DNA of 64,000 nucleotides, from the sequence record OQ067374.1; one strand, written 5' to 3'. A program made the position numbers and the translations under genes. Numbering within the stretch: the stretch's first letter is position 1; each line of letters opens with the position of its first letter. The stretch is from Escherichia phage a20. The notes beneath the pieces were generated by a model. That model saw only the letters and a program-made list of their open reading frames with translations, did not search any database and had not been told where the DNA came from. This document shows, one piece after another, positions 28,968 through 43,048 of this stretch.

Positions 28968-29156
28968 TTATCGAAAATCTGCTTCGAAAACTTTCTCGTC
29001 ATTAACAAATGCTTTAACTAATGCTTTGTTCACTTCAGCAAGTTGTACCGTAACCCACTCGATTTCTTCGCGATCACCTGATAACATCATATCTTTAGTG
29101 AACATCTCACCGCTTTTAAACCAACCGATAAAAGTAACTTTAGTTAATTTGCTCAT
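28968..29156 (-). CDS. dmd: Dmd-like antitoxin (discriminator of mRNA degradation; inhibits host RnlA/LsoA-type toxins)
   Basis: 62 aa from MSKLTKVTFIGWFKSGEMFTKDMM...AEVNKALVKAFVNDEKVFEADFR; recognised from T4 Dmd (60 aa); ATGA overlap with upstream gene. Confidence 0.65.
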   Translation of the reverse strand: MSKLTKVTFIGWFKSGEMFTKDMMLSGDREEIEWVTVQLAEVNKALVKAFVNDEKVFEADFR

Positions 29157-33045: not shown

Positions 33046-33594
33046 TTAACGAGCCCATTTGATGATTTCTGTAATCAAAACATTACGTTCGCTTGCATTA
33101 AATCCTATAACTTTGTTAGCACCATCATGATTAAGTAATTGATACGTTTGGATTTTGTTATGAATTGCAAACTCTTCAAAATGTGAAATGACTGTATTAA
33201 AACCGAATGAAGACAAAGTAATAAGGTCGTCTTCAAAACTTTCAGTCATTTCGTTACGTGTTAAAATAATTGTGAACACATCATGGTTTTGGCAAAGACG
33301 AACATAATCCTGTTCATAAACGTCAAGAACCGAGTCCGCATCTTGTCGAATACGTCCATAAACCCAGTTACTAATATATCCACGGTCTAACAGATAAATC
33401 TTAGTAGGGTCTAAATAATTCAACATCGTTTCGAAACAGCCAACTTCATTTCGAGACTTAACATCGAAACGTCCATCAACTGTTCGTTTAGGGAAATCAA
33501 TCTTTACATATCTTTCACTAATTTCCATTATGTCATTAATGAAAGTTGTTTTACCAGCATTATCCGGGCCATCTACTAAAATAATTTTAGCCAT
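33046..33594 (-). CDS. P-loop nucleotide/nucleoside monophosphate kinase-like protein (thymidylate-kinase-like)
   Basis: 182 aa; Walker A LVDGPDNAGKTT and LLDRGYIS (DR-Y motif) as in dNMP/thymidylate kinases. Confidence 0.55.
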   Translation of the reverse strand: MAKIILVDGPDNAGKTTFINDIMEISERYVKIDFPKRTVDGRFDVKSRNEVGCFETMLNYLDPTKIYLLDRGYISNWVYGRIRQDADSVLDVYEQDYVRLCQNHDVFTIILTRNEMTESFEDDLITLSSFGFNTVISHFEEFAIHNKIQTYQLLNHDGANKVIGFNASERNVLITEIIKWAR

Positions 33595-33595
33595 T

Positions 33596-34495
33596 TTATT
33601 CCTCGATTACGACATCTTCATATTTAGGTATATTATACGGTGAAGAAATTAAAGCATTAAAGTAGATGAACTCACCAAGACCTGGATGAAATACTTCTTC
33701 AGGATTTTCGAAATATTGAATCTTCGGACGTCCTTTAAGAATTTGATAGTATTCAGTTTTAGTTGGTTTAAAAATTCGAATCAACGCTTCTTCAGGATAC
33801 TTATTTCTGTCGAAGCTATTATTTGGATCGGTTATATAAAGCGGTTGGCCTAATTGAATTGCACATTCAACCACTTGTTCAAAACGATAGCATGGGTCAC
33901 TAATTCGAAATGGATGAAAAATACCATCTAGATGAATAGGAGCCAAATCACCTACAAGACGCTGCATGATGGAAGGACGTATAACTTTCTGCGTTACGAT
34001 AATCTTATTACCATCTGCACCTGCGTTAACCAGCACTTCTTTTTGACGTTCATTCAACACAGTAGTTTGAAGTGAACGATTAACCGACAACATATCGGTT
34101 TTTAAGAATTCGTCAATATAAAAACGTGGTTTATTAGGGTCTGCAGTGATATTGAAATTGAATTCTACATCAAAAGCGCCGTCATATCCGGTGATATCTG
34201 TGATTAGAAAATCACAATCATAATAAGCAATTAATGAATCAACCACAAATTCATTTTCAGTCCAGAAATATTTACGAGTGTTATACGCGTTATCTTTATA
34301 CCATAATGGAACAAACTTAAATTCTGGGAAAAGACGTTCACATTCTTTAATATCAGATGCATTACGTGGATATGTAATCACATCACCTGGATTAGCACGG
34401 TGCAAATGAAGTTGGAAGTTGCCATCCTTAAGGATAGCATACTGCCCAGTTTCATAAGACCGCATACTCAAAATAGGTACGCGGAAAATAGCCAT
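33596..34495 (-). CDS. protein of unassigned family occupying the T4 beta-glucosyltransferase position (candidate DNA-modifying transferase)
   Basis: 299 aa; no motif recognised; adjacent to the hydroxymethylase; T4 has bgt between uvsX and 42. Confidence 0.5.
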   Translation of the reverse strand: MAIFRVPILSMRSYETGQYAILKDGNFQLHLHRANPGDVITYPRNASDIKECERLFPEFKFVPLWYKDNAYNTRKYFWTENEFVVDSLIAYYDCDFLITDITGYDGAFDVEFNFNITADPNKPRFYIDEFLKTDMLSVNRSLQTTVLNERQKEVLVNAGADGNKIIVTQKVIRPSIMQRLVGDLAPIHLDGIFHPFRISDPCYRFEQVVECAIQLGQPLYITDPNNSFDRNKYPEEALIRIFKPTKTEYYQILKGRPKIQYFENPEEVFHPGLGEFIYFNALISSPYNIPKYEDVVIEE

Positions 34496-35211
34496 TAGTC
34501 AAGGAATCCTTTAACATAATCAAAATCACGTTCAAACACATGGGCACTTACCATGGTATGAGTATAATCACCAACTTCTACACCACATTCGTTAGCGATA
34601 TAATGAAGTAATTTTCCTTGGAGATAAAAATCCAACTGCATAACAACAGCACAGTTCTGAGAACGCATATGACAGTGGGTATAAAGCTTACCATCACGAA
34701 TATAATAAGTCACTGAGTCAGTACATGGATATTCAAGAGTTTCGTCCGAATCAAGCAAAGCCTGATCAGAACTTTCTAGAATTTGGAACACAACTCTTCG
34801 AGAGTTAGGCTTCTCTTTAAGTTCTTTTAGAAGAGCTGGTAATTGGGCCGCAATGCGAGGACCATAGAAAGTGTTGAAGTTCGCCGGCAAAACATCTGAT
34901 TTTGGTTTAGAAATAAATTTAGCGACATTAGGATATGCCTTAAACGCTTCTTCTGCGTTGGTACCACCAGAAATCATAAACTTCCAGAAGTCTTCGGCAT
35001 ATTCATAAGAGATGCGGTTAATACGTGGGTCAGTCATTTTGAATGATGATGGAGTGTCAACAACTACTGTCATAGACCCAATTTCATTACAACGTCCAAT
35101 ACGAGAATCAGTTACGAATTCCGGGTTTTCTAAAATTTCACGATTGACTGCTTTAAATGCGGTTTGAAAATCTGCGGCTTTGATATATTTCATTGTGTTA
35201 TGTTTTCCCAT
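34495..35211 (-). CDS. 42: thymidylate-synthase-superfamily pyrimidine hydroxymethylase (gp42-like, divergent)
   Basis: 238 aa; ...KPNSRRVVFQI...EYPCTDSVTYYIRDGKLYTHCHMRSQN... (catalytic Cys context and R-S-x-N/D region of TS/dCMP-HMase fold); position of T4 gene 42. Confidence 0.7.
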   Translation of the reverse strand: MGKHNTMKYIKAADFQTAFKAVNREILENPEFVTDSRIGRCNEIGSMTVVVDTPSSFKMTDPRINRISYEYAEDFWKFMISGGTNAEEAFKAYPNVAKFISKPKSDVLPANFNTFYGPRIAAQLPALLKELKEKPNSRRVVFQILESSDQALLDSDETLEYPCTDSVTYYIRDGKLYTHCHMRSQNCAVVMQLDFYLQGKLLHYIANECGVEVGDYTHTMVSAHVFERDFDYVKGFLD

Positions 35212-35253
35212 GTTTACCTCAATACAATTTATTATATACTCAATTCATAAAGC

Positions 35254-35493
35254 TTATTTGAATTTCTTAGCGATGTTGATATAACGTAAAGCTTCAGCAT
35301 CGATACTTCCAAGAACACTATGAAGAAATGCATCAGCGTAGTATTCCAATTGAACAGGTTCTTTAATCACTTTAGCCGCTTTGGTTCCAAACAGGCCCAT
35401 AAGGGCCTTTTTAAGAATTTGTTCATTAGTGTTCAGTTTCATAGTCAAAATCTCTTCATTAAGTTGGTGGTTAAAAGTTTTTCTAGAAATCAT
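35254..35493 (-). CDS. hypothetical small protein
   Basis: ORF track, 79 aa. Confidence 0.45.
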   Translation of the reverse strand: MISRKTFNHQLNEEILTMKLNTNEQILKKALMGLFGTKAAKVIKEPVQLEYYADAFLHSVLGSIDAEALRYINIAKKFK

Positions 35494-36650
35494 TCTGGGT
35501 ACCTCAAAGCGTCATCAGAGTTAGTTATATCAATAATAGATATAGAATTTTCTGATAACCCATTTTTAGATAACTGACGTTTATAATATCTTTCACAATA
35601 TGTACACGTCGTCCCGCAGATTTCATTAGCACAATCGAAATCTGGATGTCTGAACCACCTTTTTTCTAAAAAGCCATCTAACAAAGAGGTTTCAATATTT
35701 ACTGTATGTGAAAACTCAGTTTCGTTTTCAAGAGTGAAAATAGTCTCTAAAGGCTTCCACAGTTCTAACAAATTACCTTCAAACTTTTCAGAAGCGTATG
35801 CTTCAAGAACTTTCAAAATGTAGTCTGTGCTACCTGTACGTCCTGAAACTTTGAATTGAGTGATACCAATATCATTATAAAGTTTCAAATCTTGAGGACG
35901 AACAAAACGAGTTCTCAACCAGTTAAATGGGTCTGTATCACGAGCTTTAATGCAGTGTTGCATTGGATATCCGTTTAAGGATTTAGCATCATCAGCTGTA
36001 ACATCAGTACTATGGAAAATATAGCAAGAGTCACGATAGCTACAATGTGTTGTATACCCTTTACCAGCATTAGAACAGAACTCATTTACAAGAACTTCAA
36101 ATATTATATTGTTCTTATTGCAAAACTCTGCTGCACGCTTCAGGAAAGAAACTGAACGGTTCTTATGAATTCCACAGCAGACCTTTTTGATATTATATTG
36201 GTCATGCAAGTATTTGATTTGAGTTACAGCATCGACATGTAGAATTGTTGAAACTTCAATCTCAATGTCTTTATTGACTTCACGAACAATTTCCATAACA
36301 ACAGGGTTAGCGATAGTAATACGCCATACGCCTATTGACCAAAGATACTGAACATAATCCTGAATAGCTTTCTTCTTCCACTCAACTAGTTCTCTTTTTG
36401 AACCAGGATTTATCGTGTTGAGTGTATAGTTAAAGCAAATACCTAATTCGTTACAACGTTTAACGTAATCTTCTAACATCTTTTTGTCAACGTCAGGAAG
36501 CCTAAAATCAGGTCTGGCTGCTACAAAAGCCATTTCTCTTGTAGAGCCGTATACTTCGTTTATCAAGCTATTAGGATAAGTTTTATTGAGCTCTACGATT
36601 TTATCAAGAAGAGCTAAATCAAAATTCGTTCCAATTTTAAAAGTATTCAT
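35490..36650 (-). CDS. Cys-rich putative Fe-S enzyme of unassigned family
   Basis: 386 aa; clusters KKVCCGIH, EFCSNAGKGYTTHCSYRDSCY and C-terminal DCANEICGTTCTYCERYY (contains a CxxxCxxC spacing). Confidence 0.5.
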   Translation of the reverse strand: MNTFKIGTNFDLALLDKIVELNKTYPNSLINEVYGSTREMAFVAARPDFRLPDVDKKMLEDYVKRCNELGICFNYTLNTINPGSKRELVEWKKKAIQDYVQYLWSIGVWRITIANPVVMEIVREVNKDIEIEVSTILHVDAVTQIKYLHDQYNIKKVCCGIHKNRSVSFLKRAAEFCNKNNIIFEVLVNEFCSNAGKGYTTHCSYRDSCYIFHSTDVTADDAKSLNGYPMQHCIKARDTDPFNWLRTRFVRPQDLKLYNDIGITQFKVSGRTGSTDYILKVLEAYASEKFEGNLLELWKPLETIFTLENETEFSHTVNIETSLLDGFLEKRWFRHPDFDCANEICGTTCTYCERYYKRQLSKNGLSENSISIIDITNSDDALRYPE

Positions 36651-36707
36651 TTTTTTTGCATCTCACGTTAATTGATGCGATGGTTTTTGCAGGTCTTACT
36701 TAAATTA

Positions 36708-37097
36708 TTATAGATTCGGTTTATATGATTTAAATGTTTCGAATTCGCCTTTATTCATAAGAGCTTTGAATTCGTCAGGACGCATAGCTTTGTCGTCGAT
36801 AATCCAATCATATACTGGTTTATGTGTTAGCAAATTATGGTACTTCAAACCAATGTTTTCCAAGTTCTGAATCAGACTTGGGAGAATGTCAATTGCTATA
36901 CGTCCAGGACCTACTGACTTCATACCGCGAGCAGTGTAAAGCGTTATGGTATGCCCTGCATCATACAGAGCATTAATAGCAGTCACCATTTCGACGTCTG
37001 GTTTGAAGTTCACGTAATCACGATTGTTATTCCACTCTGTTATACAATCATCGACGTCCACGCAAAGATGTAATGGTTTCATAGCAATATCCTTCAA
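36708..37097 (-). CDS. small HAD-superfamily phosphatase
   Basis: 129 aa; motif I LCVDVDDCIT (DxDx[T/V]), ITLYTAR, and K...IIDD; start may be the ATG 15 nt downstream. Confidence 0.6.
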   Translation of the reverse strand: MKDIAMKPLHLCVDVDDCITEWNNNRDYVNFKPDVEMVTAINALYDAGHTITLYTARGMKSVGPGRIAIDILPSLIQNLENIGLKYHNLLTHKPVYDWIIDDKAMRPDEFKALMNKGEFETFKSYKPNL

Positions 37098-37809
37098 TAG
37101 AATTTTTAATATTATCAGCTATACGCTTTCTAGGAATACCCGTTTTCTTTTCAGCTATCCTAAGAGATTCATAGTAATTTTCGTTTATTTTAACAAATTT
37201 TTGAGACTTGTGAGCATTTTTGCTTTCGTCCTGATATCGATAATTAAGATATTTAGGCGATTTTACTCTCTTTTGAATCGTGGCAGAAGATATACCCAAA
37301 TCTTTAGCCGCTTCCCGACAGGATTCATAATATTTGCCATCTACATTAATCTTTAGACCATGTAATGCAGGTTTACCATACCTCCTGTGCTTTTCTTTAC
37401 CCCTAGCTATAGATTCAGCTGACAAAGTTTTACCCCATCTTGGGTTTTTATCACCAACTAAACGTCCTTTATTTGCCTTAGAAATTTTATCCTTGGACCT
37501 TTGGGATAACCCGTCAGAACCGCCTTCGCCACCAGTTTTAAGATTGTAATAATTTGGGTCTTTAACTATGTCTAATGTTATTAGAGCCTTTTCAGCTATT
37601 TTTAATTCTTCTCTCGAGCTATGGTAGGAAATGATTTCTTTAAGAAAATTTTCCTTCCCGTATTTCCTTTCAGCCTTTTTATATAATTTACCAGAACCTT
37701 TATATAAATCTAAAGGCTCGGCTTCTTCAGCCGAGTGCATTCCTAAATAAACTTTACCGTTTATAAGATTAGTAGTTTTGTAGAGATAATGTATCAAATT
37801 CGTTCCCAT
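37048..37809 (-). CDS. GIY-YIG homing endonuclease (Seg-like)
   Basis: 253 aa; N-terminal HYLYKTTNLINGKVYLGMHS...YKGSG (GIY-YIG module), basic DNA-binding C-terminal region; overlaps both neighbours. Confidence 0.8.
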   Translation of the reverse strand: MGTNLIHYLYKTTNLINGKVYLGMHSAEEAEPLDLYKGSGKLYKKAERKYGKENFLKEIISYHSSREELKIAEKALITLDIVKDPNYYNLKTGGEGGSDGLSQRSKDKISKANKGRLVGDKNPRWGKTLSAESIARGKEKHRRYGKPALHGLKINVDGKYYESCREAAKDLGISSATIQKRVKSPKYLNYRYQDESKNAHKSQKFVKINENYYESLRIAEKKTGIPRKRIADNIKNSIEGYCYETITSLRGRR

Positions 37810-39479
37810 TGATGAGTGATATCGCCACCGATTGGACGATAGGAAACACCAGTTTCTTTATCAGTTAGTACCCATTTACCAGGATTTTTTGTAATCAGAG
37901 TAGCCGTTACAGGTTCTGCTACGTCATAACTAATAGAGCCGTCTTGAAGTACACGGCCCATATTACGTAATTGCTTAGTCAGAAGTTCCATACCTTTATA
38001 ATATGCGGCTACCGCTTTAAGTGGATTATTCTTGAAATAACCACCTAATGCAATCCAGATAATTGCCACTGCCAAATGATGATACTCGTTAAACGAACTC
38101 ATCTTTCCATATTTGTAAACTAATGGATTGATGTTAATAGTCACATTACAAGTTGTTTCATCAATAGTAAACTGTCCCCAGGTCGGATTAGCATTGAATT
38201 CATCATAACCTGAAACAGCATAAAGCACTTTAGCTTCATCATACAATTTTGGCCCGTAAATCTTGGTTTCGCCAAAATATCCACGAGGGTCGATAAACTT
38301 AACTTCGCCGTTATCAGTAATCATAGTATTACTGAAGTTCGGGTCACCATGAATAACAGAGTACTGTCCCTGAGAACGGTTATGATAACGAATAAGATGT
38401 TCTAAAGCTTGTTTCAGCATTGGCTTCAGACGTCCAATCTTAGTGTAGTTCACATGTGTGATTTTACCAAATGAATCAATCAATGGTTGAATGCTTTCAC
38501 AACGATCAATAACTTTCGTATAGAATTCTTTAGTGAAATCACGACGAACAGTTTCAGGACTTACAAAATAAGTGTCTGTGCTGAATTTCAGTGCATCTAA
38601 AATTGTATCAACAATTTGTGGACGAGCAAGACTTGATTTGGATTTAATATATTCAAATGCCGGCTTACCTTTAATGCGTTCCATTTCAAAGTTATTTTCA
38701 TTAACAGAAACTAACTGAGGGACTGAATCTGATTTCACTTTCAAATACCACGAAATCTCATCTTTCTGAAGAGCTCGGCCCTGTTCGGTTAATGCGAATT
38801 TAGTTACAGTTTCTTCACCGATTTCAACTGCATTAAAACTACGATTAAGTTCACGAACTTCATGAGCTTTTTCAAGTTTAGGCATATCACCTAAATCAAT
38901 TAGATTCATAAGCTCTGATTTATTGAATGCGCCGCTGTAAAGGAATTCTACGAAATCACGTCCTTTGCAGTATTCATGAATTTCTTCATCAGTAGAACCC
39001 ATATAGAATTCCCAGTCTTTGAACTGATAAATTCCTACAACATTACCACCTGTTGAACCTACGTTAGTGATATTTTCACCGTCGAAATTATATCGACATT
39101 CGTCGCCCTTAACATAGATTGCGTTAACATTCCAAGACCATGAACCAAAATCGGGAATAATATCACACCAGTTAACAATTACATTATGGCCGTCTAAATC
39201 TTTGTGTAATTTAGCAAGAGCATAAGCAGATCCATACGCTTCATCAACTGTACGAATAGTCACATTGAACCCTTCTTGCTCACAATAAGCTCGAACAGTT
39301 TCAGCAAATTTTGAATGAACTACTACAATAATTTCATCTGCGCCTAGGTCAGAATAAATTGTATACAAATTGCTCAGAATAGTGTCTTGTTTATAGTTAA
39401 CAAGCACCTTAGGAATATGGTGAGTAATTGGATATAAACGAGTTGCCAGTCCAGCACCAAGAATAACAGCTTTTTTCAT
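37794..39479 (-). CDS. bifunctional sugar-1-phosphate nucleotidyltransferase (N-terminal) / APH-ChoK-type kinase (C-terminal)
   Basis: 561 aa; N-term MKKAVILGAGLATRLYPIT...PKVLV (G-x-G-x-x-R-L nucleotidyltransferase signature, LicC/RmlA-like); C-term HGDPNFSNTMIT...VKFIDPRGY (Brenner HxDxxxxN and DxxG of aminoglycoside/choline kinase fold). Confidence 0.7.
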   Translation of the reverse strand: MKKAVILGAGLATRLYPITHHIPKVLVNYKQDTILSNLYTIYSDLGADEIIVVVHSKFAETVRAYCEQEGFNVTIRTVDEAYGSAYALAKLHKDLDGHNVIVNWCDIIPDFGSWSWNVNAIYVKGDECRYNFDGENITNVGSTGGNVVGIYQFKDWEFYMGSTDEEIHEYCKGRDFVEFLYSGAFNKSELMNLIDLGDMPKLEKAHEVRELNRSFNAVEIGEETVTKFALTEQGRALQKDEISWYLKVKSDSVPQLVSVNENNFEMERIKGKPAFEYIKSKSSLARPQIVDTILDALKFSTDTYFVSPETVRRDFTKEFYTKVIDRCESIQPLIDSFGKITHVNYTKIGRLKPMLKQALEHLIRYHNRSQGQYSVIHGDPNFSNTMITDNGEVKFIDPRGYFGETKIYGPKLYDEAKVLYAVSGYDEFNANPTWGQFTIDETTCNVTININPLVYKYGKMSSFNEYHHLAVAIIWIALGGYFKNNPLKAVAAYYKGMELLTKQLRNMGRVLQDGSISYDVAEPVTATLITKNPGKWVLTDKETGVSYRPIGGDITHQWERI

Positions 39480-39520
39480 GTTGTGGTCCTCATTGGTAAG
39501 TAGGAGTATTGTACACTATT

Positions 39521-39664
39521 CTAGTTAAAGCATTCATACTTTGCTTGTAGTCCAATCATAATCCATCCAATTACAAGTGTTGGAATCATTACCGGAGCCG
39601 TTAAGCTCCAGTAGATAGTCATGACAAGCATCAATAGTAAAAGTCCTATTGCTATTGCTTTCAT
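39521..39664 (-). CDS. small hydrophobic membrane peptide (47 aa) between the sugar-isomerase gene and the fused kinase gene
   Basis: Hand-translated MKAIAIGLLLLMLVMTIYWSLTAPVMIPTLVIGWIMIGLQAKYECFN; TAATG overlap with SIS gene stop; imm-like position. Confidence 0.4.
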   Translation of the reverse strand: MKAIAIGLLLLMLVMTIYWSLTAPVMIPTLVIGWIMIGLQAKYECFN

Positions 39665-40296
39665 TATTCGCCTCGTAACATGGCACCTAGTGCACCACCA
39701 GGGTGGAACTTAAGGAAATCATTAGAGGTAAATCCACGTTCAGACGAAAGGTTGATAGCAAACGTATCGATAAGCGCTAACAACAATGTAGTGGACATAG
39801 TCGGAGCCAGAGAATTCTCATCAACCTCTACTGCGATGCCTGTACAGAAAGAGTAATCAAAAAGGGCTTCATTTTCTTGTGGAATGTCTGGGTTACAATG
39901 CAACAGAATCTGTTTGACGTTCGGACGAATCATTTTAAGATGCTTAGCCACGCCTATCATTTCTTCAGTTTTACCAGAACGACTAATATGAATCAACACA
40001 TCATTAGGCGCAATGAATCCTGCATCACCGTGAGAATAATGCCCAGTGTTCAAGTACATACTCGGGATACCTAGTGAAGCAAAAGTCTCGGAAGCTTTAG
40101 TTGCGATATTAGCATTCTTACCAACACCTGTAATAATTACTCGGCTTTCATAATTACTAAGTCCCGGGCGTCGAAGAGTTTCTAGAATAGCATTATAACG
40201 AGCAGGGTTTTGACTAATTACTTTGGCCATAGCGGCCAAAGAAGAAGCTTGTTTTATGATTGCGTCAATAGCGATAGTAATAGGAGTAGTTTTCAT
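39664..40296 (-). CDS. single-domain SIS sugar-phosphate isomerase, KdsD/GutQ-type (arabinose-5-phosphate isomerase-like)
   Basis: 210 aa; VIITGVGKNANIATKASETFASLGIPSMYLN...SHGDAGFIAPNDVLIHISRSGKTEE...LAPTMSTTLLLAL...GFTSNDFLKFHPGGALG closely parallels KdsD core motifs; lacks CBS domains. Confidence 0.8.
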   Translation of the reverse strand: MKTTPITIAIDAIIKQASSLAAMAKVISQNPARYNAILETLRRPGLSNYESRVIITGVGKNANIATKASETFASLGIPSMYLNTGHYSHGDAGFIAPNDVLIHISRSGKTEEMIGVAKHLKMIRPNVKQILLHCNPDIPQENEALFDYSFCTGIAVEVDENSLAPTMSTTLLLALIDTFAINLSSERGFTSNDFLKFHPGGALGAMLRGE

Positions 40297-40336
40297 ATTT
40301 CTCTCATTTAATTAGTTTACCGTCCATGGCATTATA

Positions 40337-43048
40337 TCAAAAATCGAACATATCGAACAGAGATGCTTTCTTCTCGTAATCGAGTTTCGCTGCTGATGTG
40401 AATCCTTCAAGTGGTTTAATAAATGTCTTCTCAAGGAGAACAGTGTAGTCCATCCAATGAAGTACGTCGTCTTTAATTAAATCTGTGATTTCAGTGCCAG
40501 AAGGCCATGCGATACATTTATCACCGAATGGGTTTCCTTCACGTAAAGGCAGAACATATACTTTTTCACCTTCTACAACTTGCGGTGCATCGATATTACC
40601 TTTGATAGCCCGGTTATATGTCAGAATTCCACGAATATGGAACGGACATTTGGGACCAGGGAATCCACCTACGTCATATTTAGCAATGTTATTCGCAGAA
40701 GATACCGACGCGATGCTAATATAATTCAATTGGCGGAATTCTTTTTCAAACTCTTTAAAATATTCTTGTAATGATTCTTCACCTTCTTGAAGCATACGAC
40801 GAATACATTCTTTAAGAGCTTTCTGTACTGCTTTAGGAGTCGAAGATTTCTGTGTTTCGAGACCCATGATTTTAAGCTTAGGTTCAGCGTATCTGGTTCC
40901 TTCCATATCCCACACGTTTAATGCATAACGTTTCTTACCAGTCCAGAATCCACCAATACCTTTAGAACCGAGCGGAGGACCAGCGATAGCTTCTCGGTCC
41001 ATGAACATCAAATGTTGCTTATTATTCATGTATTCGCACATTTCACGGAAACCTCTATCAATAGCAGGTTCCATACGTTCACGAGCGAACTTATCTAAGA
41101 AGTCTACCCAATGGTTGGTATCACGGAATTTAGATTCACCAACCTTATCGATAATTTTATCAGCAGATACGTAAATAGAGTCTGTATCACCATATAGAAC
41201 GAAAGCTTCACCTTCTGTACCACAAACTTCATTCAGATATTCATTAACTTTACGTTCAATCCACTGTAAAGCCATTTGACCAAATGTTGTGATTGCAGTA
41301 GCATTACGCAAATCATAATAACGGAACCAAACGTTGCCAAGTGCACCATAAAGTGAGTTGATAAGCAATTTACGGTTAATCTGTGCAGTCATACCTGCAA
41401 CTTCAGTACGTTGAGCTCTAAACAACATTTCATTAAGAGATTTAGCAGACAACTTTTTAATCTTTTCTTTAATCTCATCACTGAAGTCGAAACGATAATC
41501 AACATCTAATGGTTCGTCAACAGAAAGATTAGGATTATGCAATGCCTCTTTAATTATTTCACCATTACGTTGAGCTGCAAGCATGTAACCTTTATGTTCT
41601 TTACGTTGATTAAAGACCTTAGTGATTTCAGTTGGAACTACACCATCACGGTCTTTATAATACATCATGCCGTTAGGAGAGCAACTGTACACATCTGAAG
41701 GACGTTCAGCGATTGCGTTAATATAATCATGCAGTGGAGCTACTTTAAACGTTCCTGCTATTGTTTCCGGGCTAATATTCACTTGGCGAATAATACTTGG
41801 ATACAGAGATGTAAGGTCGAAACTCATTACATATTTGTATCGATTTGGAATAGGTTCCTTAACAAAAGCGCCAGGATAAGGTTGAACCGGGTGAGAACGA
41901 CCTTGTGGAATCACCTTGTTCTGCTCTTTAAGGCTATTAAAAATAATAGCATCCCATGTTTTAATTGGACTGAACACAGATTGAATCTGAATTTTAGCAT
42001 AATAACCCATGTCCAAGCTCAAGTTAATGAACTGGCGTTTAGCATCAATTTGCAATACACGATATACGTCGATGATGTTATAGCTTATATATCGTTGATG
42101 ATTACTTTCGCGAAGTTTAGAAATAGGACCGTCATATTTCAGTTTACCAACGTTCAATTCAAATTCTGAAATGTAATCCAGAGAATACGACGGTTGATTG
42201 GTAAAAGAGAATTTTTTGTAAAGGTCAATGTAATCAAGAACAGAGATACCGAACAATGTAATGATTTCACGAGAACCATACATGTTTTCGATAACTTTAA
42301 CACGAGTTTTACGATGCGGTGATAAACGTTTCGCAGTAGATTCGCCAAAAATATTCTTGATTCGGTTATACACATATGGAATATCAAATGACTCAACGTT
42401 CCATCCAGTCAAAATGACAGGAGTTTTCTGTTGCCAGAAGTTGAGATATTCCATCAACAATTCTTTTTCGTTATCGAACGGCATATAAATGATTTTATCG
42501 ATAATTTCAGATGGAACTTCATCACCGCCTTGTTCTTGAAGCTTAGCAGCGATTTCAATAGACCATTCTTCTACATTACCATACGGAGAATTCAATAGAT
42601 CAAATACGTAGAACCTGTCGTCAATTGAGTCATAATGGGTGATAGCATCAATCGGATGTTTTGCTTGTGACGGCTCAGGGAACCCATCCGGAGATGTTAC
42701 TTCGATGTCGAAGTTAGCCACACGAATTTTTGTATGGTCGTATTTGATTTCATAGTTATAAGTGTCAGACAAATACGCCAATTTGAAATCGTCCATGCCA
42801 AGTGCTTCAAGTCCGATATCTTCCATGCGTTTAATCCATTGGGAGGCATCACGCATATTAGCGAACAACTTACGAGTACACGGTTTACCGTAGATATCGA
42901 AATATTTCGTAGCCTGACTTTCTGGACAATGAGCAAACAGTGATGGTTTATATTCTACTTCACGAGTACGTTCACGGCCATTAGAATCGATGTAACGTTC
43001 AAAAATTGAATCACCAATCTGTTCAACCGTTAAGTAAAATTCTTTCAT
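40337..43048 (-). CDS. 43: family-B DNA polymerase with 3'-5' exonuclease (gp43), RB69-type
   Basis: 903 aa; exo motifs FDIEV / YNIIDV, polymerase motifs DxxSLYPS, K(x3)NSxYG, YGDTDS; N-terminus MKEFYLTVEQIGDSIFERYIDSNGRERTREV. Confidence 0.97.
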   Translation of the reverse strand: MKEFYLTVEQIGDSIFERYIDSNGRERTREVEYKPSLFAHCPESQATKYFDIYGKPCTRKLFANMRDASQWIKRMEDIGLEALGMDDFKLAYLSDTYNYEIKYDHTKIRVANFDIEVTSPDGFPEPSQAKHPIDAITHYDSIDDRFYVFDLLNSPYGNVEEWSIEIAAKLQEQGGDEVPSEIIDKIIYMPFDNEKELLMEYLNFWQQKTPVILTGWNVESFDIPYVYNRIKNIFGESTAKRLSPHRKTRVKVIENMYGSREIITLFGISVLDYIDLYKKFSFTNQPSYSLDYISEFELNVGKLKYDGPISKLRESNHQRYISYNIIDVYRVLQIDAKRQFINLSLDMGYYAKIQIQSVFSPIKTWDAIIFNSLKEQNKVIPQGRSHPVQPYPGAFVKEPIPNRYKYVMSFDLTSLYPSIIRQVNISPETIAGTFKVAPLHDYINAIAERPSDVYSCSPNGMMYYKDRDGVVPTEITKVFNQRKEHKGYMLAAQRNGEIIKEALHNPNLSVDEPLDVDYRFDFSDEIKEKIKKLSAKSLNEMLFRAQRTEVAGMTAQINRKLLINSLYGALGNVWFRYYDLRNATAITTFGQMALQWIERKVNEYLNEVCGTEGEAFVLYGDTDSIYVSADKIIDKVGESKFRDTNHWVDFLDKFARERMEPAIDRGFREMCEYMNNKQHLMFMDREAIAGPPLGSKGIGGFWTGKKRYALNVWDMEGTRYAEPKLKIMGLETQKSSTPKAVQKALKECIRRMLQEGEESLQEYFKEFEKEFRQLNYISIASVSSANNIAKYDVGGFPGPKCPFHIRGILTYNRAIKGNIDAPQVVEGEKVYVLPLREGNPFGDKCIAWPSGTEITDLIKDDVLHWMDYTVLLEKTFIKPLEGFTSAAKLDYEKKASLFDMFDF

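Follow-up and report, generated by a model that had tools for sequence, protein, structure and literature searches.

The gene at positions 37794-39479 of the 64,000-nucleotide stretch of Escherichia phage a20 studied here (sequence record OQ067374.1; the whole stretch is called the window below) encodes a nucleotidyltransferase fused to a kinase. It is very probably the orthologue of HY126 AfhE, RB69 ORF53_52c (gp52:53) and DLP3 gp82, a bifunctional enzyme of the de novo pathway to uridine diphosphate (UDP)-D-arabinofuranose. Earlier papers (Thomas 2018; He 2026; Lee 2026) have already described the gene, its fusion, the pathway role and the activities. The fusion and a role in UDP-arabinose synthesis were proposed in 2018 (Thomas et al., PMC6024577); in 2026 the activities were shown on a near-identical orthologue and the RB69 copy was analysed, as described in PMC13326640. 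The window adds a near-identical copy with a neighbouring homing-endonuclease insertion, and its main practical value lies in annotation. The open reading frame (ORF), both folds, the catalytic residues, the orthology to the HY126 and RB69 genes and the gene neighbourhoods were established in the present analysis, while the enzymatic activities, the order of the steps and UDP as the carrier are taken from work on the 96%-identical HY126 protein as summarised in PMC13326640.

Gene structure and orthology to AfhE

The gene is described as follows:

37794..39479, minus strand: afhE orthologue (RB69 ORF53_52c / gp52:53), 561 amino acids (aa); predicted D-arabinose-5-phosphate 1-kinase / UDP-D-arabinofuranose pyrophosphorylase; stop codon TGA at 37794-37796

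The ORF runs uninterrupted for 561 codons from an ATG, with a GAGG Shine-Dalgarno sequence 8 nt 5' of it, and a run of this length without a stop would be expected by chance with a probability of ~6e-19 at the base composition of the window. PHROG 4098 matches the protein over its full length (E 8e-295). The window belongs to an RB69-like Mosigvirus of the T-even type: in a megablast search, the region 35000-40400 was 98-99% identical to more than 150 Mosigvirus phages, and the 903-aa ORF adjoining the afhE orthologue is a T4-type DNA polymerase.

The RB69 reference record (NC_004928.1) shows two ORFs, ORF053c and ORF052c, in place of this gene, the break being due to one extra C. When this C was removed from the alignment, a 561-aa ORF was restored, 557 of its 561 residues being identical to the window protein. 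Re-sequencing of the RB69 region had already led Thomas et al. (2018) to the same error, and they gave the undivided gene the name ORF53_52c (PMC6024577). Because removal of the extra C restores the ORF and the same error was found independently, the fused two-domain gene is the true state. An assembly artefact was likewise rejected as the origin of the fusion, since the full-length two-domain ORF was found in 363 phage records and the RB69 split comes down to a single extra C. The spurious C maps to position 29126 of the record in our alignment and is given as C-29116 by Thomas et al. (PMC6024577).

A tblastn search located the window protein at a single place in HY126, within the same gene order, where its counterpart is coding sequence XAN60479.1 (96.4% identity, 100% coverage). 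We infer that XAN60479.1 is AfhE, as the sole nucleotidyltransferase-kinase protein of the HY126 cluster described in PMC13326640. HY126 AfhE, to which RB69 gp52:53 and gp82 of Acinetobacter phage DLP3 are equivalent (Lee et al., NAR 2026), has the same length of 561 aa and differs from the window protein by ~20 substitutions; it shares the domain order, the neighbours (the SIS isomerase upstream, AfhF downstream, the ThyA-like synthase and glycosyltransferases) and the genus-level phage background. As summarised in PMC13326640, He et al. (Nat Chem Biol 2026) demonstrated that HY126 AfhE converts D-arabinose-5-phosphate (Ara5P) and ATP to arabinofuranose-1,5-bisphosphate (Araf-1,5-P2), and Araf-1-phosphate (Araf-1-P) and UTP to UDP-Araf. 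The intervening step, from Araf-1,5-P2 to Araf-1-P, is assigned in the same summary to AfhF, a small HAD protein acting as a Mg2+-dependent phosphatase.

In public records, the orthologues are annotated as 'hypothetical protein', 'bifunctional protein GlmU', 'mannose-1-phosphate guanyltransferase' or 'dCMP deaminase', and PHROG 4098 is given as 'unknown function'. The GlmU and mannose-1-phosphate guanyltransferase names are superfamily-level mislabels, because the NCBIfam scores fall far under the equivalog cutoffs.

Domains, conserved residues and structure model

The protein is divided into two catalytic domains and a tail:

38865..39479, minus strand: N-terminal sugar-1-phosphate nucleotidyltransferase domain, aa 1-205; G-x-G-x-x-R motif at 39435-39458; invariant G10, R14, K24 and D106
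37950..38852, minus strand: C-terminal kinase domain of the APH/choline-kinase fold (eukaryotic-like), aa 210-510; HGDPNFSN at 38328-38351, IDPRGY at 38277-38294
37797..37949, minus strand: C-terminal tail of 51 residues, aa 511-561; AlphaFold2 predicted local distance difference test (pLDDT) 72-86, small beta elements

The original prediction, made from the sequence alone, had recognised a nucleotidyltransferase signature followed by a Brenner kinase motif in one polypeptide, and all three motifs that it relied on were found (GAGLATRL at aa 8-15, HGDPNFSN at aa 377-384 and IDPRGY at aa 396-401). Conservation was assessed in an alignment of 39 homologues with identities down to 29%. In the nucleotidyltransferase half, G10, R14, K24 and D106 are invariant, corresponding to the signature and the catalytic Asp. 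Invariant residues of the kinase half are K227 (the beta3 Lys), E241 (the alphaC Glu), D379 and N384 (the Brenner catalytic Asp and Asn) and D397 (the Mg-binding Asp). The N-terminal fold thus contains an intact G-x-G-x-x-R...K signature with its catalytic Asp, and the C-terminal APH/ChoK fold contains the Brenner H-G-D-x-x-x-x-N motif with the downstream Mg-binding Asp.

Profile and structure searches support this assignment. Pfam NTP_transferase matches aa 3-99 above the gathering score, and Pfam APH is matched by 17 of the 39 family members. In a profile search of the PDB, the heptose-1-phosphate guanylyltransferase HddC ranked first (E 2.4e-14) and LicC second. An AlphaFold2 model built from the homologue alignment reached a mean pLDDT of 92.9 and a predicted template modelling score of 0.89; LicC was its top structural match and LicA was matched as well, in line with the LicC/LicA-like folds that had been predicted. 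Table 1 of Lee et al. (2026) gives the same domain layout for RB69 gp52:53 (PMC13326640).

The modification cluster and the proposed pathway

The afhE orthologue lies in a cluster spanning 33046-40296, in which an Ara5P isomerase, a HAD phosphatase, a ThyA-like 5-hydroxy-deoxycytidine monophosphate (5-hydroxy-dCMP) synthase and a glycosyltransferase are all present:

39664..40296, minus strand: SIS-domain D-arabinose-5-phosphate isomerase, RB69 gp55 orthologue, predicted to convert ribulose-5-phosphate to Araf-5-phosphate; Pfam SIS E 1e-10; PHROG 5670
39521-39664, minus strand: hydrophobic ORF of 47 aa (MKAIAIGLLLLMLVMTIYWSL...), equivalent to RB69 ORF054c, between the SIS isomerase and afhE
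36708..37082, minus strand: HAD-type phosphatase, orthologue of RB69 gp51 / HY126 AfhF; NCBIfam EcbF-BcbF capsule biosynthesis phosphatase E 9.5e-14; DVDD motif kept
35490-36650, minus strand: U32-family protein (peptidase-U32 family) of 386 aa, RB69 gp50, inside the modification cluster
34495..35211, minus strand: thymidylate-synthase homologue, RB69 gp48 orthologue; NCBIfam thymidylate synthase matches, all sub-threshold
33596..34495, minus strand: glycosyltransferase of 299 aa, RB69 gp46:47 orthologue, a single ORF in the window; putative DNA arabinosyltransferase 1, predicted to use UDP-Araf
33046..33594, minus strand: thymidylate-kinase-like nucleotide kinase, RB69 gp45 orthologue, from the ORF, record annotations and PMC13326640 Table 1

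The isomerase, with 210 aa in the window and 211 aa in RB69, NRG-P0074 and HY126, matches PHROG 5670 'arabinose 5-phosphate isomerase' (E 9e-116) as well as NCBIfam KpsF/GutQ (E 2e-32) and KdsD (E 7e-31), the latter two under their equivalog cutoffs. From the function of AfhF as summarised in PMC13326640, the HAD phosphatase is predicted to remove the 5-phosphate from Araf-1,5-P2. The gp48 orthologue is probably a flavin- and O2-dependent synthase that converts dCMP to 5-hydroxy-dCMP and so supplies the acceptor base, as RB69 gp48 was shown experimentally to produce 5-hydroxy-dCMP (PMC13326640). The gp46:47 orthologue is annotated as a glycosyltransferase in the NRG-P0074 record, and its assignment as putative DNA arabinosyltransferase 1 follows Table 1 of PMC13326640. 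RB69 DNA bears mono- and poly-arabinosylated 5-hydroxycytosine (Lee et al., NAR 2026, PMC13326640).

In the pathway proposed for the window, the adjoining SIS isomerase would convert host ribulose-5-phosphate to Ara5P, whose phosphorylated O5 would hold the sugar in the furanose ring. The C-terminal APH-fold domain would then place a phosphate from ATP on the anomeric O1, and AfhF would take the 5-phosphate off the Araf-1,5-P2 so formed. The N-terminal domain would combine the resulting Araf-1-P with UTP to yield UDP-Araf and pyrophosphate. Phage glycosyltransferases would finally move Araf from UDP-Araf to 5-hydroxycytosine in DNA, and the arabinosylated base would shield the genome from restriction and CRISPR nucleases. 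A kinase acting on the 5-phosphate ester and not on free arabinose would, we infer, fix the furanose form, so that no pyranose-furanose mutase is required. E. coli itself has no synthesis of UDP-D-arabinofuranose, and this nucleotide sugar lets the phage coat every cytosine with arabinose, which gives the enzyme biological importance and makes it of practical interest for phage therapy and for the enzymatic synthesis of UDP-Araf.

Several points weigh against this assignment. The activities were measured on the HY126 protein rather than on this exact one, and both the substrate order and the specificity for UDP come from a secondary summary of He et al. (2026) in PMC13326640. Table 1 of that paper keeps an older order, with the phosphatase first and then a kinase acting on free arabinose. 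In single-sequence searches, the kinase half gave only sub-threshold Pfam kinase-superfamily matches. Finally, an endonuclease gene interrupts the afhE-afhF junction of the window and AfhF begins with ~10 altered codons, which could affect the stoichiometry or activity of this partner enzyme.

Alternative readings

The older order amounts to a salvage-like route, in which the HAD phosphatase would convert Ara5P to free D-arabinose, the kinase would phosphorylate O1 and the N-terminal domain would activate Ara-1-phosphate, so that the two domains act consecutively. This route is improbable and remains a minor rival, partly because Lee et al. (2026) still give it in their Table 1 (PMC13326640). 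The text of the same paper, citing the in-vitro work on HY126 AfhE and AfhF, has Ara5P as the substrate of the kinase and Araf-1,5-P2 as that of the phosphatase, and the structural neighbour given there for the HAD enzyme is the heptose-1,7-bisphosphate 7-phosphatase GmhB. From sugar chemistry, free D-arabinose is expected to be mostly in the pyranose form, so a furanose in DNA would not follow by itself. A salvage-type synthesis was also what the original prediction had favoured. Its architecture, its folds and its proposed role for arabinose in DNA modification were borne out; the salvage part finds no support in the published biochemistry, in which the route is de novo and the kinase and transferase reactions are separated by the phosphatase step (as summarised in PMC13326640).

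The same chemistry with another carrier, that is, with CDP-, GDP- or dTDP-arabinose in place of UDP-arabinose, is very unlikely. It is favoured by the best matches of the N-terminal domain, a cytidylyltransferase (LicC) and a guanylyltransferase (HddC), and by the fact that base specificity is not fixed by the fold alone.

Least probable of all, to the point of being hardly tenable, are activation of choline or another small alcohol as in LicCA or an aminoglycoside kinase, either without a link to DNA modification, or a DNA glycosyltransferase, which was the initial suspicion for RB69 ORF053c and Thanatos TH1_060, notwithstanding the LicC and LicA structural matches and a CD-search that names the N-terminal domain 'glycosyltransferase'. 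The LicC match is confined to aa 3-96 (E 2e-5, ~20% identity), and no Pfam Choline_kinase match at E <= 0.01 was found in the query or in family members. For the MurU, GlmU, RmlA, GalU and HddC equivalogs, the best NCBIfam scores were 22-51 bits against cutoffs of 250-600 (MurU 24.8 bits against 250). Membership in the LicCA, GlmU and MurU families was therefore rejected, and by curated thresholds the protein does not belong to LicC, LicA, RmlA or HddC either; its resemblance to LicC and LicA is at the level of fold and architecture only. The neighbours in the window are DNA polymerase, SIS, HAD, ThyA-like and GT-B transferase genes, with no LicB transporter or LicD transferase of a lic locus among them. 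Without exception, whether in phage genomes or within fused polypeptides, it goes together with a SIS Ara5P isomerase, a HAD phosphatase and a 5-hydroxycytosine synthase, which speaks against all three of these functions, as do the activities published for the 96%-identical AfhE (as summarised in PMC13326640). A DNA glycosyltransferase was also rejected because the domain has a nucleotidyltransferase fold, neither GT-A nor GT-B, and because the Thanatos homologue TH1_060 showed no transferase activity on DNA (PMC12838424).

Related clusters and fusions

Propagation of Shewanella phage Thanatos depends on TH1_060, which has 54% identity to the window protein and does not accept xylose-1-phosphate (PMC12838424). 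The SIS, nucleotidyltransferase-kinase, HAD and ThyA-like genes occur together in Acinetobacter phage Maestro (54% identity) and in JS98 (43% identity), and the same linkage was found on phage-like metagenomic contigs of 160-350 kb with two-domain homologues of 35-36% identity. In two loci (L009, 3368-9997; L011, 3037-10081), the module has a Flavodoxin_2 gene directly beside SIS. The encoded protein, of the FMN-dependent NAD(P)H oxidoreductase type, could feed reduced flavin to the 5-hydroxy-dCMP synthase.

Relatives of ~900 aa combine HAD, SIS, nucleotidyltransferase and kinase in one chain. One such fusion of 926 aa, 35% identical to the query, is encoded on contig JACCDH010973257.1 of GCA_013558355.1 (locus L004, 8001-10781), with others in loci L005 and L006, and a similar protein was found in a eukaryotic transcriptome. 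The 926-aa fusion has as neighbours RNA polymerase Rpb2 and Rpb10, an HNH-containing MutS of the MutS7 type and an autophagy-related gene, and the contig looks like that of a giant virus (Nucleocytoviricota). From its gene content, the contig suggests that an all-in-one pathway of the NDP-arabinose type may exist in viruses of eukaryotes.

The four-domain relatives lack the tail formed by aa 511-561. In the alignment, the tail is kept in 20/20 closer homologues, the T4-like phage clade (~73% down to ~36% identity to the query), and is missing from 18/18 more distant two-domain homologues. It is conceivable, but doubtful, that it serves for docking and holds AfhE either to its partner phosphatase AfhF or to the nucleotide-precursor complex of the T4 type. 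If so, Araf-1,5-P2 would be passed out and Araf-1-P returned without diffusing away, and the tail would be a functional stand-in for the covalent fusions found elsewhere.

Further genes of the cluster and the homing-endonuclease insertion

The ATG of the strongly hydrophobic 47-aa ORF overlaps the isomerase stop codon (TAATG). The HAD phosphatase is often mislabelled 'phosphoheptose isomerase' in public records. The U32 family takes in the O2-independent hydroxylases RlhA (5-hydroxycytidine in rRNA), TrhP (5-hydroxyuridine in tRNA) and UbiU/UbiV, and the U32 protein of the cluster has a weak NCBIfam match to UbiU (E 9e-4). Because the phage 5-hydroxy-dCMP synthase needs O2, the U32 protein could provide 5-hydroxycytosine under anaerobic conditions. 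RB69 gp50 appears in Lee et al. 2026 only as 'sugar or heterocycle reductase' (PMC13326640); the U32 gene was not found in the Maestro or JS98 clusters, and a literature search tying U32 proteins to 5-hydroxycytosine in phages gave no match.

The insertion beside afhE is the following gene:

37048..37809, minus strand: GIY-YIG/NUMOD (seg-like) homing-endonuclease gene, 253 aa; Pfam I-TevI_DNA-bd, NUMOD1/3, SegE_GIY-YIG

It sits exactly at the junction between the afhE stop and the afhF start, and shares 16 nt with the 3' end of afhE and 35 nt with the 5' end of afhF. In HY126 and RB69, which do not carry it, the two genes overlap directly by TAATG. The insertion has replaced the first ~10 codons of AfhF (MHHVENMLNLCFDVDD to MKPLHLCVDVDD), and the catalytic DVDD motif is retained. 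Few Mosigvirus records contain the endonuclease gene (e.g. BEU50, NRG-P0074 and JM17); most lack it, so that their coverage of the query is only 87%. The endonuclease has no part in the arabinose pathway.

Comparison with known nucleotide-sugar systems

The closest parallels are the ADP-heptose (GmhA, HldE, GmhB) and GDP-heptose (HddA/GmhB/HddC) pathways, which follow a logic identical to that of the arabinose route. In these, a SIS isomerase provides the sugar phosphate, an anomeric kinase makes the bisphosphate, a HAD enzyme removes the distal phosphate and a nucleotidyltransferase completes the activation. HldE is, like AfhE, a single polypeptide with two non-consecutive activities. The folds differ: the kinase belongs to the ribokinase fold in HldE, to the GHMP fold in HddA and to the APH fold in the window protein, and the transferase domain of HldE has a cytidylyltransferase fold. 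The heptose pathways also act on heptose and deliver their product to lipopolysaccharide or capsule, while the arabinose route uses a pentose and delivers it to DNA.

LicC and LicA of Streptococcus pneumoniae and the fused LicCA act on choline with CTP in consecutive reactions. They have no partner isomerase or phosphatase, and their sequence similarity to the window protein is at the superfamily level only. True salvage of free sugars is represented by AmgK and MurU of N-acetylmuramic acid recycling in Pseudomonas and by NahK-type anomeric sugar kinases; AmgK and MurU are separate proteins, unlike the fused enzyme of the window. Fkp of Bacteroides and AFKP80 of Leishmania are bifunctional L-fucose/D-arabinose 1-kinases and GDP-sugar pyrophosphorylases. 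They resemble the window protein in joining a sugar-1-kinase and a pyrophosphorylase in one chain, and AFKP80 also activates D-arabinose, but they differ in the GHMP fold of the kinase, in the salvage of a free pyranose sugar and in the GDP carrier.

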